Source: Thermoanaerobaculia bacterium (GTDB lineage Bacteria; Acidobacteriota; Thermoanaerobaculia; Multivoradales; Multivoraceae). From it: DNA of 64,000 bases. Both the position numbers and the translations under genes were made by a program. Under the pieces are notes generated by a model. The model ran no database searches. It had not been told where the DNA came from and saw only the letters and a program-made list of their open reading frames with translations. The stretch spans positions 2,048,001-2,112,000 of the forward strand of contig OY761158.1 of NCBI GenBank assembly GCA_963664405.1, read 5' to 3'. Each line of letters begins with the position of its first letter. Within the stretch, counting starts at the first letter, position 1. Below, one piece after another: positions 1,806-37,395 of the stretch.

Positions 1806-1937
1806 CTAGGCTCCAGAAATGATGGCTATCATTTCCTCCGCCTAGTTGCCTTTTGGCGCCGAGGACGGCGCACTTCGGCTCTGCTTCCTATTCGCTCCGG
1901 GAAACGGCTCAGAACGAATACTCGGACACGCTCCTAG
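1806..1937. repeat. Family A palindromic element, copy 1 (CTAG-bounded)
   Basis: GAAATGATGGCTATCATTTC (1816-1835) plus hairpin GCGCCG-AGGA-CGGCGC (1856-1871); homologous to 46383-46474 and 53347-53441. Confidence 0.8.
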
Positions 1938-2126
1938 CCTGGATCATTCATGAAGCTCCTACTACGGTGCCGCAGCTGCCCGAATCTACTGCGTTGCGCT
2001 CTGACTGGGCGTCCCCGTCGCGCCCCTCGACGTATTGCCCAATACGCCTGCGGTGCTCTCGGTCGCGACGCCTTGTATCTTCGGGCATCTGCAGCACCTC
2101 GCTACGGACCTCATGAATAGTCCAGG

Positions 2127-2606
2127 CTAGGGGGTGGCGTCGGTCGAGCCGACAGGACTTTGCCGTCGGATCGATAGAATCGCTCCATCCAGCTGCTGGA
2201 GAAAGCGGGATCGATCGCGCTTACCCAGCGGTGGCGGGCCGCCCGTTCTCTCACCTCCGCTGCGAAGATCCGTCAACAGGTCCCGCGTGGCGACAGCATC
2301 ACCGATGCTGTCTTCAGTGAAGAGCCGTCCGTTCGGTCCGACGACACGAGTACCCAGCTTCAGGCAGCGGGCTGCGAGAGGAATGTCCGAGGTCACGACG
2401 ATGTCGTGACTATCAGCGTTCTCGACAATCCAGTCATCGGCCTCGTCGAGCCCCTGGCGGACGACCTCGAGTGAGATCCGCTGTCCCTCTGGAACCCGCA
2501 TCCAAGAGTTGGCGACGAGGGTCACACCAAGGCGGTGTCGGCGCGCGACACGAAAGATCTCCTCTTTGACTGGGCAGGCATCTGCATCGACGAAGATATG
2601 CAGCAA
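2127..2606 (-). CDS. YaiI/YqxD family protein (DUF188)
   Basis: IFVDADACPVK, DIVVTSDIPLAARC, TGGPPP motifs. Confidence 0.9.
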   Translation of the reverse strand: MLHIFVDADACPVKEEIFRVARRHRLGVTLVANSWMRVPEGQRISLEVVRQGLDEADDWIVENADSHDIVVTSDIPLAARCLKLGTRVVGPNGRLFTEDSIGDAVATRDLLTDLRSGGERTGGPPPLGKRDRSRFLQQLDGAILSIRRQSPVGSTDATP

Positions 2607-10471: not shown

Positions 10472-10597
10472 TGACGGCCGTTCAGGGTGCCCCAGATCGC
10501 CGCAGCGCAGGAGCGAGGCGACGCAGCCGTACTCTGGTACGGCGGAGGAGCCGAGCGACGAGCACGCGGTGAGGTGGGGTGCCCTGGACGGCCGTCA
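10472..10597 (+). repeat. ERIC-like rod-shaped element E1
   Basis: 23-bp terminal IR with three G-U pairs, apical hairpin GCCGTAC-TCTG-GTACGGC (10526-10543), core shared with E2 and E3. Confidence 0.75.
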
Positions 10598-22792: not shown

Positions 22793-24010
22793 ATGTTCGA
22801 TCTGCTGAGGAGTCTTAAAGTCGTCGACTTGACGACCATCGTTCTCGGGCCTTACGCCACCCAGACCCTGGCCGACTTCGGGGCCGAGGTCATCAAGGTG
22901 GAGCCGCCGGGCGGCGACATTCTGCGAGCCGTTCGACCGGGCCGCCGCAAAGACCTGGGAGTCCAGTTCCAGAACTTCAATCGCAACAAGCGCTCCCTCA
23001 CGATCGACCTCAAGCAGGTGCGCGGGCGAGAGGTGTTGCATTCACTCGTCGAGAAGTCGGATGTGGTCGTGCACAACATGCGGAGCCGATCGGCCGCGTC
23101 GCTAGGCGCTTCTTACGCCGAGCTGTCCGCCTGCAATCCGAAGCTCGTTTACTGCTATTCGGCCGGCTATGGCGACAGTGGACCAGATCGTGACGCGCCG
23201 GCCTATGACGACATCATTCAGGCACGGTCGGGTCTCGCGACTTTGAACGCGGACGCCACCGGGGCGCCGCAATTCGTGCGCACCATCGTCGGCGACAAAG
23301 TCGTGGGGCTACACCTGGCCATTGCGGTGCTGGCCGGAGTCGTTCACTTCCAGCGGACAGGACAGGGGACCTGCATCGAGATACCGATGCTGGAGAGCAT
23401 GACCGCGTTCCTGCTGGCCGAGCATCTTGCCGGTCATAGCCTGATTCCGCCGGAGGGCGATCTCGGGTACAGCCGGCTCACCTCTCCCAGCCGTCGTCCG
23501 TATCCGACCAAGGATGGTTTCGTGGCGATCCTGCCCTACAGCACCCGGCACTGGACGCGTTTTTTTACGGCCAGCGGCCGAGCCGATCTCGCCAATGACC
23601 CGCGCGTGCTCGATCCCGAGAAACGGAGTGAGAACATCGATGATCTCTATAGCGAAGTCGCCAAGCTGGCGTTGGGGCGTACCACCTCGGAGTGGCTGGA
23701 GTTGATGGCGGAGCAGGACATTCCGTGCGCGCGCGTCAACGGCCTCGCGGATCTCTTTACCGACTCCCACCTGGAGGCAGTGCAGCTCTTCGAGCGAGTG
23801 AGCGACCCGGAGTTGGGTGAGATCCAACAAGTACGATCTCCCTATCAGGTCGATGGGGCCACCTACGGCGCGGGTTCCGCGAACACGGTCGCCCCCTGCC
23901 TCGGCGAGCACACCGACCAGGTTCTCGAGGAGCTCGGCTATTCGGAACAGGAGATTTCAGATCTTCACGCCGAGAGCGTGGTGACGTCGGCAGCCAAGCG
24001 AGATTCCTAG
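22793..24010 (+). CDS. CaiB/BaiF family (class III) CoA-transferase
   Basis: GPYATQTLADFGAEVIKVEPPGGD, NRNKRS, APCLGEHT. Confidence 0.94.
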   Translation: MFDLLRSLKVVDLTTIVLGPYATQTLADFGAEVIKVEPPGGDILRAVRPGRRKDLGVQFQNFNRNKRSLTIDLKQVRGREVLHSLVEKSDVVVHNMRSRSAASLGASYAELSACNPKLVYCYSAGYGDSGPDRDAPAYDDIIQARSGLATLNADATGAPQFVRTIVGDKVVGLHLAIAVLAGVVHFQRTGQGTCIEIPMLESMTAFLLAEHLAGHSLIPPEGDLGYSRLTSPSRRPYPTKDGFVAILPYSTRHWTRFFTASGRADLANDPRVLDPEKRSENIDDLYSEVAKLALGRTTSEWLELMAEQDIPCARVNGLADLFTDSHLEAVQLFERVSDPELGEIQQVRSPYQVDGATYGAGSANTVAPCLGEHTDQVLEELGYSEQEISDLHAESVVTSAAKRDS

Positions 24011-24172
24011 CGTGGTGTCTCCGACATGGCTTGCCAAGAGCTCGAGGTCATTCTGTTCGCTGTCAAGGAGCGACGAGGCAGGCATATTGGGAATATGTCG
24101 ACGAGTCGCGACGACGGCAGCGGGCAAAAGGGGCCGAGATATTCGTAAGCCATGTCGGAAACACGGCACTAA
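24007..24172 (+). repeat. ERIC-like rod-shaped element E2
   Basis: Arms GTGTCTCCGACATGGCTTGC / GTAAGCCATGTCGGAAACAC; apical GGCATATT-GGG-AATATGTC (24081-24099); begins at the TAG of the CoA-transferase. Confidence 0.8.
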
Positions 24173-24195
24173 CAACTACTTCGAGGAACGATCCG

Positions 24196-24849
24196 ATGAG
24201 TGACGACCCCGCCTTGTTCGAGATGATGCACAGCATGCGCGCGATGCGCCGTTTGAAGCCGGATCCCGTTCCGGACGAGCTCTTGAGGGAAGTGCTCGAT
24301 GCGGCGATTCGGGCGCCGAGCGGGCAAAACACCCAGCCCTGGGCGTTCGTCGTGCTGCGTGAGGAGGCCAACCGGCGGTTCTTCGGCGATCGCTACAAGC
24401 ATTGGATCCACACTCTGATGGGCGATCGTGTACCCGAGGAGAGCGATGATTCTCCGGCGGCGCGCTCGAGGCGCGCGGCGGTCCATCTCGCCGACCACAT
24501 GAGTGAGGCGCCGGTCATCGTGCTCGCCTGTGGAAAGCGCGACTGGCCTTTTGCCGTGCCGAGCGAGAAGCGGGTCGGCAAGGCGCCACCGTCCTACGGA
24601 TCGATCTATCCGGCGGTGGAGAATCTCTTACTTGCTTGCCGGGCGCGCGGGCTGGGCGCCAGCCTCACCACCACCCACCAGATGTTCGAGGGCGAGCTGA
24701 CCGAGCACCTCGGCATTCCGGATACCTACGGTGTCGTCGCGGCCATCCCGATCGGTTATCCGACCGGCCGCTTCGGGCCGGTCCGTCGTCGCCCGGTGGG
24801 GACTGTGTCTCACTTCGACCGCTGGGGTGACCAGAACCCGGATTGGTGA
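24196..24849 (+). CDS. Nitroreductase family protein
   Basis: RAMRRLKPDPVP, RAPSGQNTQPW, SIYPAVENLLLACRARGLG; GAGG RBS. Confidence 0.9.
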   Translation: MSDDPALFEMMHSMRAMRRLKPDPVPDELLREVLDAAIRAPSGQNTQPWAFVVLREEANRRFFGDRYKHWIHTLMGDRVPEESDDSPAARSRRAAVHLADHMSEAPVIVLACGKRDWPFAVPSEKRVGKAPPSYGSIYPAVENLLLACRARGLGASLTTTHQMFEGELTEHLGIPDTYGVVAAIPIGYPTGRFGPVRRRPVGTVSHFDRWGDQNPDW

Positions 24850-30168: not shown

Positions 30169-30231
30169 AGACTCTAGTGTCCTGGGCGGATTCAACTGGT
30201 CGTCGCAACATCTCGTGATGGAGGTGTTTCG

Positions 30232-31629
30232 ATGGGAGTTGGCAAGTGTCAGGGTGCGATTCGAGCGATGCGTGGCCAGATGCGGTCACCTGGCCGGCCC
30301 TCGACAGCGCGGCGCGAGGACCGGATCCGGTTCTGGGAGACGATCGCTCGTGGGGCGTCCAGCGAGGACGCCGCAACAGAGGCTGGGGTGTCGCCGGCTG
30401 TCGGGTCGAGATGGTTCAGGCAAGCTGGTGGAATGCGACCTATCTCGTTGGCTCCGGTGTCGGGGCGTTATCTGTCGTTCGCCGAGCGTGAAGAGATCGC
30501 CATCCTTCACGCTCAGCATGTTGGGGTACGTGAGATCGCTCGCCGCCTGGGTCGTTCACCGTCGACGATTTCGCGGGAGCTGCGCCGCAACGCGGCGACT
30601 CGCAGCCGTGCCGTAACTTATCGGGCCACGACTGCGCAGTGGCACGCGGAGCGGCGCGCCAGCCGTCCGAAGGTCTCCAAGCTTGCCGCGAACGATGCCT
30701 TGCGTGAGTACGTGCAGAACCGCCTCGCCGGCGTGATCGCAAGGCCTGACGGGGAGCTGGTGCCGGGTCCGGATGTGCGTTGGATCGGCCGTCGGCACGG
30801 CCGTCGCCAGGATCGGCGTTGGGCGAAATCCTGGAGTCCGGAGCAGATCTCGAACCGGCTTCGGATTGATTTCCCCCATAATGAGTCGATGCGGATCTCT
30901 CACGAGGCGATCTACCAAGCGCTCTACATCCAAGGTCGAGGAGCCCTCAAACGCGAGCTCGTCGCGTGCCTGCGAACCGGGCGAGCGCTACGAGTGCCGC
31001 ATGCGCGAACCCGGGGGAGAGGCAAGAAATTTGTAACTCCGGAGATCATGATCAGCGAACGCCCCGCCGAAGCCGGCGACAGGGCCGTGCCGGGTCACTG
31101 GGAAGGCGACCTGATCGTCGGGCTCGAGAGCTCAGCGATCGGGACCCTCGTCGAACGCACTACGCGGTTCACGATGCTGCTGCACCTGCCCCGCATGGAA
31201 GGGCACGGGACCGAATCGAGGGTGAAGAACGGGCCGGCCCTCGCCGGGCACGGCGCCGAAGCCGTCCGTGACGCGATCGCGGTGTCAATCACCACGCTGC
31301 CCGAGCAGCTCCGCCGGTCCTTGACCTGGGACCAGGGCGCCGAGATGGCTCAACACGCTCAACTCCGCGTCGATACCGGCCTCGCGATCTACTTCTGCGA
31401 CCCGCACAGCCCCTGGCAGCGGGGCACCAACGAGAACACCAACGGACTACTACGCCAGTACTTCCCGAAGGGCACCGACCTTGTCAGATACTCCTGCGAC
31501 GACCTCGCCGCGGTCGCGCTCGCACTCAACGGCCGACCCCGCAAGACCCTCGGCTGGAGAACCCCTGCCGAAGTCTTCGATGAGCTTGTACACTCTGCTC
31601 ACCAAGGCAACGCTGCGACGACTCCTTGA
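30232..31629 (+). CDS. IS30 family transposase
   Basis: LSFAEREEI, WSPEQIS, GHWEGDLI, TWDQGAEM, PWQRGTNENTNGLLRQYFPKG. Confidence 0.96.
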   Translation: MGVGKCQGAIRAMRGQMRSPGRPSTARREDRIRFWETIARGASSEDAATEAGVSPAVGSRWFRQAGGMRPISLAPVSGRYLSFAEREEIAILHAQHVGVREIARRLGRSPSTISRELRRNAATRSRAVTYRATTAQWHAERRASRPKVSKLAANDALREYVQNRLAGVIARPDGELVPGPDVRWIGRRHGRRQDRRWAKSWSPEQISNRLRIDFPHNESMRISHEAIYQALYIQGRGALKRELVACLRTGRALRVPHARTRGRGKKFVTPEIMISERPAEAGDRAVPGHWEGDLIVGLESSAIGTLVERTTRFTMLLHLPRMEGHGTESRVKNGPALAGHGAEAVRDAIAVSITTLPEQLRRSLTWDQGAEMAQHAQLRVDTGLAIYFCDPHSPWQRGTNENTNGLLRQYFPKGTDLVRYSCDDLAAVALALNGRPRKTLGWRTPAEVFDELVHSAHQGNAATTP

Positions 31630-31636
31630 ACCCAAG

Positions 31637-32050
31637 CAGTACGCCTCGAAGGCTTACCAGGATCGGCTGGCTGAGCTGCGGTTTCGCTGCAGCATGTCCG
31701 GCGTCGGAAATTGTTATGACAATGCGGTCTTGGAGAGCTTCTTCGACAGTCTCAAGACCGAGGTCTGGGACCGACCCTTCGAGACTCGTCAGCGAGCTCA
31801 CGACGAAGCGGTTTCTTACCTCGAAGTGTTCTACAACCTGAGACGCCAGCATTCGACGCTCGGATTCCTGAGCCCCGAGGCCTTCGAAGGGGCAGCGTGA
31901 ACTCACGCGCGACCGGCGGTCGGATCCGAAGGGAGGCTGCGCTCCCCGAACCTCGCACAGCCTCGTCCGAAGCTGACTACCCGAACTGATGCAGAATAGG
32001 AACTGCCCCGATGGGGCTTAACTTGGTGTCCACGAAACCGTGACCGCTCA
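31637..32050 (+). pseudogene. IS3-family 3' fragment carried as passenger
   Basis: QYAS...SMSGVGNCYDNAVLESFFDSLKTE...FYNLRRQHSTLGFLSP*, then IS3-type end TGTCCACGAAACCGTGACCGCTCA. Confidence 0.9.
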
Positions 32051-32128
32051 GAACCCCTGCCGAAGTCTTCGATGAGTTTGTACACTCTGCTCACCAAGGC
32101 AACGTTGCGACGACCCCTTGAACCCAAG

Positions 32129-32286
32129 CTCTACCCGTAGTTCGTTGTGCAAATCGCGCCGTCATTTTGGGTGCTGCCAAGGCGCACCGACGAAGTCATA
32201 TCGGGAATATTTCGAGGAGGTGGAACGACGGCAGCGCGCAAAAGGGCCAGCGAGTTGCGTAACGTACTGCGGGTAGAGGACACTAG
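32129..32286 (+). repeat. ERIC-like rod-shaped element E3 (first 10 bp displaced to 30174-30183 by the IS)
   Basis: CTCTACCCGTAG.../...CTGCGGGTAGAGGACACTAG arms; core close to E2. Confidence 0.82.
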
Positions 32287-32292
32287 CTTCTC

Positions 32293-36609: not shown

Positions 36610-37395
36610 CTAGGCGGAAGCTCCGGAATAGTGCCGCAGGCCGAGCTTCCAGAAGCGCCGTGAGACAAAGAGGAAGGCTGCGGCCAGCGCCACCGCGACG
36701 CTCAGGGTCAGCGGCGAAAGACGACCGGTGAGCGCCTGGGCGGGGACGCTCACGGCAAAGACGATAGGAACCAGCGCCGTCAGGCTCCATCGCAGCCAGG
36801 GAGGGTAGATACCGATCGGCCAGCGCCCCGCGACATACATGCTCCAGAAGATCATCATCACGTTCTCGATGCGGATGAACCAGAAGCAGAGGGTCGCCAG
36901 AATGATCCAGAAGCTGTAGACGATCGCCGCTCCGCATCCGAACGCCAGCAGGAACTGGAGCGCCTCGACGACCGACACCGTCTCGGCCAAGCGATACAGC
37001 GATACGGCCAGCAGGACTCCGCCGAGGAAGACCTCCCCGATCTTCCAGATCTGGAACTCCGAGATGCTGACCAAGAGCTGAGCGTCCGCGGGTTTGGTGA
37101 TCGTGAAGTCGAGCTGGCCCATCCTCACCTCGCCCATGAAGCGGGTCAGCGAAGGCGCGATCACCATGTTGATGGCACCGAGCATCATGAAGTAGATCCC
37201 GAGCAGTGCGAGCAGCTCCCAGGGGCCCCATCCGGCGAGGCTCTCGGTCTGGCGAAAGACCAGAAAGACAGCTATCAGCGCGGTCGACATATTGAGCAGC
37301 GTCTCGAAAGTCTGGATCCAGAAGTTGGACCGATAGGCCATCTCGTTCATCGCCCCGATACGGAAGAAGACGAGGATGAGACGCAGCACGTTCAT
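36610..37395 (-). CDS. ABC-2 family permease (DUF990 type)
   Basis: MAYRSNF, GQLDFTITKP, RWPIGIYP. Confidence 0.88.
   Translation of the reverse strand: MNVLRLILVFFRIGAMNEMAYRSNFWIQTFETLLNMSTALIAVFLVFRQTESLAGWGPWELLALLGIYFMMLGAINMVIAPSLTRFMGEVRMGQLDFTITKPADAQLLVSISEFQIWKIGEVFLGGVLLAVSLYRLAETVSVVEALQFLLAFGCGAAIVYSFWIILATLCFWFIRIENVMMIFWSMYVAGRWPIGIYPPWLRWSLTALVPIVFAVSVPAQALTGRLSPLTLSVAVALAAAFLFVSRRFWKLGLRHYSGASA

Follow-up and report, generated by a model that had tools for sequence, protein, structure and literature searches.

CTAG-targeting miniature inverted-repeat transposable elements with a conserved core structured on one strand, in a Thermoanaerobaculia bacterium

A stretch of 64,000 nucleotides from a Thermoanaerobaculia bacterium (contig OY761158.1, positions 2,048,001 to 2,112,000 of the forward strand; hereafter the window) holds three rod-shaped intergenic elements, E1, E2 and E3. 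A reading of the letters alone (the sequence-only reading) had grouped them by a common core, and all three lie where it had placed them. Of these, E2 (24007..24172, + strand) and E3, which is split in two pieces further along the same strand, are mobile MITEs (short for miniature inverted-repeat transposable elements) that target CTAG. Together with their relatives they form a family that is new, though it belongs to a type of mobile element already known, ISfinder and Dfam lying outside the comparison. They contain a core that is conserved, exchangeable and specific to one strand, and this core is real. The explanation that we consider probable is that E2 and E3 are MITEs mobilised by IS630-type transposases and carry the core as a cis-acting single-strand module. 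A MITE family on its own is ordinary; what is unusual is a folded module that recurs on different ends, in many genera and in several phyla.

Such an element consists of two terminal inverted repeats (TIRs, the outer arms) of 30-45 bp around a core of 105 nt, with 160 bp between the flanking TA dinucleotides. E2 is a complete MITE of subfamily B, given here with its flanks (CTAG on the left, CTAA on the right). On the + strand, its left TIR, a subfamily-B arm, spans 24010..24038, the core common to subfamilies A-D spans 24039..24142 (100.9 bits with an nhmmer profile) and the right TIR spans 24143..24169. E2 and E3 do have in common the strings that had been pointed out, GTCATT(T/C)TG, CATAT(T/C)GGGAATAT and ACGACGGCAGCG(G/C)GCAAAAGGG. 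The family extends well beyond the window. In the host genome, a single contig of 6.78 Mb with 62.6% G+C, E2 has 15 further full-length copies at 94-96% identity and a second set at 78-80%; many loci share only its positions 33-136, and a profile built on the 105-nt core detects 261 loci without overlap, of which 162 are full length. Copies with paired TIRs number 188 (140 of subfamily A, 21 of D, 16 of B and 11 of C), with lengths of 154-251 bp, most of them 160 bp. Short, free of a transposase and ended by TIRs, they are MITEs, and the elements make up about 0.5% of this genome.

The four subfamilies are told apart by their flanking arms, which are mutually unrelated: CTAG is followed by ACCAGCGTTTCC in A, by TGTTGTGTCTCC in B (the E2 type), by TGTCGTGTCCCG in C and by TGTCCTGTACCA in D (the E3 type). 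Each outer arm pairs with its own partner, as the sequence-only reading had it; its further statement that the arms are unrelated from copy to copy goes too far, those of E2 and E3 both beginning CTAGTGT..TGT. Identical pairs are present in all four subfamilies (26, 1, 3 and 2) and the median nearest-neighbour identity is 98-99%; the spread was therefore recent. A short open reading frame (ORF) that begins in the apical hairpin lacks conservation from one subfamily to the next. E2 has no match among the plasmids of PLSDB, and a search of the literature, with ISfinder, Dfam and the supplements of papers outside its reach, found no description of this element family. Two A-type elements of 59-61 bp (1826922-1826982 and 2783084-2783142 of G000:C1, the contig of this genome) are made of arms only and lack the core, as against the 140 core-bearing A copies.

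The target is constant: CTAG stands at both junctions in 147 of the 187 oriented copies, in a genome where this tetranucleotide is three-fold under-represented (7,502 occurrences for 23,229 expected). Flanks other than CTAG vary almost solely at the outer base. Six copies have CTAG/CTAA, four TTAG/CTAG and one TTAG/CTAA, making 11 asymmetric pairs, and matching non-CTAG pairs are absent. This asymmetry is what a duplication of TA predicts when the element has the termini G...C, whereas a duplication of 4 bp does not predict such flanks. Insertion into the rare CTAG would then most likely duplicate TA, the element bringing its own G...C, so that both junctions again read CTAG. As C-TAG is the target, the elements have a habit of providing stop codons: 74 of the 192 neighbouring gene 3' ends stop exactly at the first base of the element (gene calls for this and for the orientation tests are crude and ORF-based, and their starts may be misplaced). 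In E2, the TAG at 24008-24010 is the stop of an upstream CoA-transferase-like ORF (22793-24010), and the next gene beyond the element begins at 24197. Besides supplying or rebuilding stop codons, the elements create new CTAG hot spots for other insertion sequences (IS), and they may be mistaken for RNA genes or terminators.

Empty sites, proposed earlier as a check, are found in related DNA. In two metagenome contigs, each from its own study, the E2 site is bridged without the element; they are about 97% identical to the flanks and cover at least 255 nt on both sides (comparison at 85% likeness). The first, of 1,212 bp and with 10 other letters in 412 aligned, joins 24011 to 24181 and leaves a single CTAG (...TTCCTAG-CAAC..., that is ...TTCCTAGCAAC...). 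The second joins 24009 to 24174.

Inside the 105 nt lies an inner structured core of about 70 nt (24054..24124 on the + strand of E2, recognised by its pair counts and by a covariance model, R1, at 61.1 bits). It runs from P1, an outer stem of 9 bp with free sequence, through two unpaired A residues, a GGCG/CGCC helix (written GG(C/A)G/CGNC for E2), the middle stem P2 (4-5 bp) and the internal loop J2 to the apical hairpin P3. The GGCG/CGCC helix is invariant in the core alignment, and so are the purine-rich loops; a CAA bulge lies on the 3' side of the core. J2 has the form 5'-GA-C-G(C)A / 5'-GA-G-GA, which we interpret as a single Watson-Crick pair set between two tandem G.A/A.G blocks. In E2 this lone pair is flipped to G-C, and the bulge reads GAC. 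A first alignment, not fitted to the model, comprised 28 sequences, some taken from five arm families of this genome and others from four other genera and from metagenome-assembled genomes (MAGs) of other phyla. It has compensatory changes in 20 of 26 pairs. R1 was built without E1, and 93 of its matches were realigned. Their 89 distinct sequences show compensatory changes in 21 of the 26 pairs, in a realignment that is fitted to the model and therefore leans towards its pairing. The covariation score is 0.425; shuffled controls give 0.127 (none of 500 reaches 0.425), and sliding the partners gives no more than 0.111. As to the lone J2 pair, 65 of these sequences have C-G, 22 have G-C and one has A-U, and in the last the position is unpaired. 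The covariation of inner stems noticed earlier (GCGAC/GTCGC in E2, CACC/GGTG in E3) thus extends to larger alignments. The core is better conserved than the surrounding transposon ends. Rfam has no match at gathering score in the window, and nine loci searched at E up to 1 gave only two chance matches to miRNAs; with the literature search, this agrees with the earlier suspicion that the family may be undescribed in this lineage.

The structure belongs to one strand. E1, E2 and E3 each fold as one long rod, far below shuffled controls, and always with the more stable fold on the + strand: -86.1 kcal/mol (z -9.0) against -66.3 for E2 and -93.5 against -74.1 for E1, the right part of E3 reaching -77.7. 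Ten representative elements, five from this genome and five from four others, contain 73 G-U pairs against a single A-C 1x1 mismatch, their remaining 1x1 mismatches being all purine-purine, and fold 20-34 kcal/mol lower on the + strand; sharing core positions, the ten are not independent, although their arms differ. These data support the earlier claim of a structure retained on one strand only. The + strand also retains its rod when DNA parameters are used (-38.6 kcal/mol, as against -31.6). Single-copy departures from the subfamily consensus are G-U in 124 cases and A-C in 58 overall, against 13 and 17 in the young subfamilies B and C. The latter look neutral, and the G-U bias therefore belongs to the lineages that spread rather than to resident copies.

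Among 150 other genomes of the phylum, each at least 90% complete and sampled evenly across it, R1 detects the core in 52, often with tens of copies apiece; 41 of 108 genera have it, this genome (G000) included. Of 120 other genomes sampled from a second phylum, that of one matched MAG, four carry it. A pattern scan of contigs from other genomes gave 55 loci, mostly in MAGs labelled Verrucomicrobiota, the others being labelled Smithella, Beta- and Deltaproteobacteria, Bdellovibrio, Methylophilaceae and Acidobacteria; the first gap of the pattern is N4-5, against N3 in the copies of this genome, so that close relatives were missed. An asymmetric hairpin module of about 70 nt lies inside all subfamilies, inside E1 and a fourth element of the window, E4, and inside elements of other genera and phyla. 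Many loci in other genomes are forms of 280-314 bp with two inverted cores, one per strand, and read-through from either side would therefore include one sense core. Within the phylum but outside the host's own family, one genome has an A-type element (L129, G184:C5:1560333-1560563, R1 74.3 bits) near-identical to those described here, which suggests horizontal transfer. Some carriers (L131 and L133) have other, non-CTAG ends. Their core-bearing rods, in G130 and G043 respectively, stand directly against apparent 3' ends of tRNA genes.

A candidate for the mobilising enzyme comes from another genome of the phylum, G078. There, an IS of the IS630 family (1,207 bp, CTAG on both sides) contains a 370-aa ORF with a DDE_3 domain. 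Its right end, CTAG followed by TCTCCTGTAACAGTGGTTCG..., matches the D-type arms at 28 of 32 bases (those of G000 and of G004) or 27 of 32 (G039). Judged by this likeness, the D-type arms, E3's among them, are ends of an IS630-type transposon, and the D type has an autonomous element with matching ends. All five copies of the G078 IS examined abut a MITE with which they share one CTAG, as expected when each insertion would rebuild two targets. DDE_3 is present in each of the five genomes with bursts of near-identical copies. In the 150-genome sample, 27 genomes have both DDE_3 and the core, 24 only DDE_3, 25 only the core and 74 neither; DDE_3 thus occurs in 27 of the 52 genomes with the core and in 24 of the 98 without it (odds ratio 3.3, p 0.001, kinship and general IS richness uncorrected). 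This tally, like that for PF13751 given below, includes G088, positive for all three features, and its omission would shift each count by one.

Such an origin has precedents. IS630 reportedly prefers TA inside 5'-CTAG-3', as is told of the 1991 work of Tenzen and Ohtsubo. RUP of Streptococcus pneumoniae is linked to IS630-Spn1, and the plant Stowaway is also counted in the Tc1-mariner-type set of MITEs. The elements described here resemble IS of the IS630/Tc1-mariner group (IS630, ISY100) and the MITEs derived from them in being short and gene-less, with TIRs and TA junctions. They are unlike them in that a strand-specific core of about 70 nt, conserved in sequence and in structure, is retained across subfamilies with unrelated ends and across phyla. 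ISY100 duplicates TA (PMC2170065). Mobilisation would occur in trans, by DDE_3 transposases of the IS630/Tc1-mariner type, and the arm subfamilies would represent different transposon ends. We infer that enzymes of this type also move the B type, that of E2. The outer arms being TIRs of IS630-type transposon ends, their pairing needs no RNA explanation, and what resembles covariation in them is the symmetry of TIRs. Two other candidates for an autonomous partner in this genome were rejected: long pairs of TIRs turned out to be MITEs, further A copies among them, interrupted by IS91-like or IS21-like elements, and the 517-aa ORF that two inverted cores enclose resembles, by its sequence, a sulfatase. 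A TIR-like match at window position 37294 lies within a gene and is due to chance.

Several observations weigh against an IS630-borne element with a single-strand module, and they are best considered together. Duplications of TA and of 4 bp yield an identical empty site, so that the empty E2 site does not separate them. This genome is without a long autonomous element with matching ends, and both DDE_3 copies that it does have are degenerate, with ends of another kind. The B-type arms of E2 match no IS compared (16 of 32 bases at best), and 10 of the 23 multi-copy genomes of the phylum sample are without a DDE_3 match. In this genome CTAGs also bound three IS types that belong to the IS4/IS5 superfamily. 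The autonomous IS of G078 is itself coreless, its ORF being preceded by 61 nt and followed by 36 nt, which leaves no room for a core. We know of no strand-specific step in the cut-and-paste chemistry of IS630. The copies of one family are kin, so that cell counts overstate independent events, and covariation alone leaves the choice between RNA and DNA undecided. Finally, orientation is random: it is the same as that of tandem genes in 39 cases and opposite in 45, and for the gene that stops on the element it is sense in 27 cases and antisense in 39 (p 0.18).

The three CTAG-bounded IS types raise the question of another enzyme. Were the elements MITEs of the IS4/IS5 superfamily, of IS5, IS1182 or IS1380 type, they would be moved by DDE_Tnp_1 with a true 4-bp duplication of CTAG (YTAR), a view that we regard as unlikely, although it is the main rival. 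One of the three, an IS1182-like element of 1,562 bp, has eight CTAG-bounded copies (e.g. G000:C1 378432-379993) and a 439-aa transposase made of DUF772, DDE_Tnp_1 and DDE_Tnp_1_6; the other two carry DDE_Tnp_1_4. DDE_Tnp_1 is found in all five burst genomes, and a parallel exists in MITEPsy1 of Pseudomonas syringae, an experimentally mobile 100-nt element of the IS5 family that inserts at CTAG or YTAA and was shown by experiment to duplicate 4 nt (PMC3189936). MITEPsy1 differs from the elements here in that duplication, in its IS5-type (ISPsy2) ends and in its narrow distribution, nor is a conserved structured core reported for it. Against this view, no such IS end resembles the MITE arms, those of the CTAG-flanked IS1182-like and IS1380-like elements of this genome being unrelated to them, nor do the elements here have the matching IS5-superfamily ends that mark an IS5-type MITE, whereas the D-type arms match an IS630-family end as described. 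The 11 asymmetric flank pairs, with no symmetric ones, also argue against a 4-bp duplication. Co-occurrence of PF13751 with the core is weak in the same 150 genomes (odds ratio 2.1, p 0.066), and G039, G095 and G106 have one DDE_Tnp_1 match each.

The core might also be known already in another guise, if the family were a distant member of the enterobacterial ERIC/IRU lineage; this is improbable too, marginally more so than the IS4/IS5 origin. The likeness to ERIC noticed in the sequence-only reading is genuine as regards layout. Twelve ERIC copies of Escherichia coli K-12, fetched via the ERIC2 primer, carry (G/C)AAGGCG...(C)AACGC around a purine-rich internal loop, with an apical hairpin, and ERIC (also IRU or RU-1) is likewise rod-shaped and intergenic; the repeat measures about 127 bp, has TIRs and, like the elements here, bears TA at the termini (PMC2229807, Table 1). 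Once filters are switched off, 3 of the 12 copies align with R1 from end to end, J1 motifs in register, at 14.5, 11.7 and 10.3 bits. These are weak matches (E 0.055-0.9 in 36 kb); nine copies stay unmatched, and R1 with default filters has no match in the whole MG1655 chromosome. Moreover, length (127 against 160 bp), J2 sequences, P2 length and TIRs all differ. The Correia or NEMIS elements of Neisseria offer a further comparison, with TIRs, a length of 107-155 bp, a TA duplication, long RNA hairpins when co-transcribed and variants of an internal module (PMC2229807). In Correia, by contrast, that module is a double-stranded DNA site that binds integration host factor, whereas here it is an asymmetric hairpin with G.A-rich loops.

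A direct explanation of one-strand folding would be transposition as single-stranded DNA, the elements being hairpins of REP/REPIN or similar type moved by a tyrosine (Y1/HUH, RAYT-like) transposase. The excess of G-U over A-C and the persistence of the + strand rod under DNA parameters agree with this, Y1_Tnp matches exist in this genome, and there is a weak bias of orientation between replichores (103 against 70, p 0.015) that places the folding strand on the leading-strand template. Such placement, however, is the reverse of that of IS608-type elements. Y1_Tnp is present in just two of the five burst genomes, with no match in G039, G110 and G106, and the two-core forms are symmetric. REPs are short palindromes defined by GTAG or CGTC tags (PMC3733652) and accompanied by a Y1 transposase; ours are 160 bp long, with long TIRs, CTAG junctions, a duplicated target and no such tags. 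We hold this mode of transposition to be very unlikely.

A structured RNA was also among the ideas of the sequence-only reading. Covarying stems, invariant loops and very stable folds would fit a structured noncoding RNA family, or hairpins that terminate or stabilise transcripts, kept for the neighbouring genes. Convergent genes flank 54 of 168 copies, an enrichment over the 19% that such gaps make up among all intergenic ones, ERIC is co-transcribed with orientation-dependent effects on mRNA, and RNAs of ERIC and Correia are reported to alter mRNA stability (PMC2229807). We give this the least credence of all, as the random orientation described above, seen again with respect to downstream starts (27:31), argues against a host RNA gene, and as identical copies exist, close strains differ by presence or absence of the element, E2 has no promoter-like or terminator-like site and no U-tract, young B and C departures look neutral and Rfam has no match. 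The elements being mobile MITEs, with an empty site in a related strain and random orientation, the notion of a free-standing structured RNA has to be given up.

This brings us back to MITEs mobilised by IS630-type enzymes, and to what the core might do in them. We infer that it is a cis-acting module, read in single-stranded form and serving the element rather than the host. As to the form in which it is read, we lean slightly towards read-through RNA; single-stranded DNA is a distinctly weaker candidate, and the remaining forms, taken together, are weaker still. A bolder proposal, which we advance only tentatively, treats the core as a functional unit in its own right, a strand-specific structured RNA or single-stranded DNA with two tandem-G.A loops and CAA bulges. 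It would travel as a passenger on unrelated ends (several IS630-type sets of TIRs, non-CTAG ends and possibly IS5-type ones), would have spread through at least three phyla and would be kept by binding a widely conserved factor of the host or of the transposon. If so, factor binding by the core would raise the success of its vehicle or lower its cost, and the arrangement would be a bacterial parallel of the RNA-gene-derived heads of eukaryotic short interspersed elements (SINEs). MITE interiors are usually regarded as neutral filler. A conserved and exchangeable interior would mean selection on the passenger, through transposition, RNA processing or host tolerance, and the core would make it possible to test why certain MITEs multiply into the hundreds.

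E3 has been severed by an IS30-family insertion. Its left stub (30174..30183, + strand) is made of CTAG and the first 6 nt of a D-type arm, and its remainder (32129..32286, + strand) is a diverged subfamily-D MITE with terminal CTAG at 32283-32286 and an R1 core match at 32168-32238 (65.2 bits). The intervening IS30-family element (30184..32128, + strand), no part of the MITE, has a 465-aa ORF (30232-31629) and an extra IS fragment near its right end. It is in fact compound, this fragment being an IS3-type integrase piece (ORF 31481-31900); some 80 nt of the IS30 end recur at 32050-32128, and there is an apparent 2-nt duplication, CT, where the MITE arm was hit. Without the insertion, E3 would take up nearly all of the gap between two divergent starts (ATG 30169-30167 on the - strand, ATG 32293 on the + strand), and divergent promoters flanking it (window 30170-32292) would then need to sit in or past the MITE.

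E1 (10472..10597, + strand) is a 126-nt rod that lies between convergent ORFs, without CTAG flanks in this copy. Like E4, it represents a separate family sharing the inner motif with E2 and E3. Its centre, 10517-10552, matches the P2-J2-P3 portion of the core, and R1 finds it weakly in a search of the window (14.9 bits, E 0.07, model positions 20-55), as against 65.2 bits for E3 and 61.1 bits for E2. It had also been stated that all E1 arm mismatches are G-U. There are four G-U pairs, as well as one C-A mismatch. The E1 family has about 17 full and about 35 partial copies, some of them in tandem; CTAG follows many of the copies, though not E1 itself. Head-to-tail arrays of this family, with spacings of 219 bp and 109 bp and partly of half units, occur at G000:C1 5242309-5242866 and 5447640-5448036.

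E4 (1934..2130, - strand) is a CTAG-bounded MITE of 197 bp with arms of yet another family (CTAG followed by CCTGGA...), and carries CAAGGCG...CAACGC. Its CTAG at 2127-2130 holds the stop codon of a - strand ORF called at 2127-2606. One copy of the 1,562-bp IS is inserted at the terminal CTAG of an E4-type MITE. A mini-palindrome of 40 bp, itself bounded by CTAG (CTAG CTTTCGGAAATGAT...), has about 20 copies in the genome, for example at G000:C1 194231-194270, 1965344-1965383 and 4283031-4283070, and several of these directly adjoin copies of that IS.

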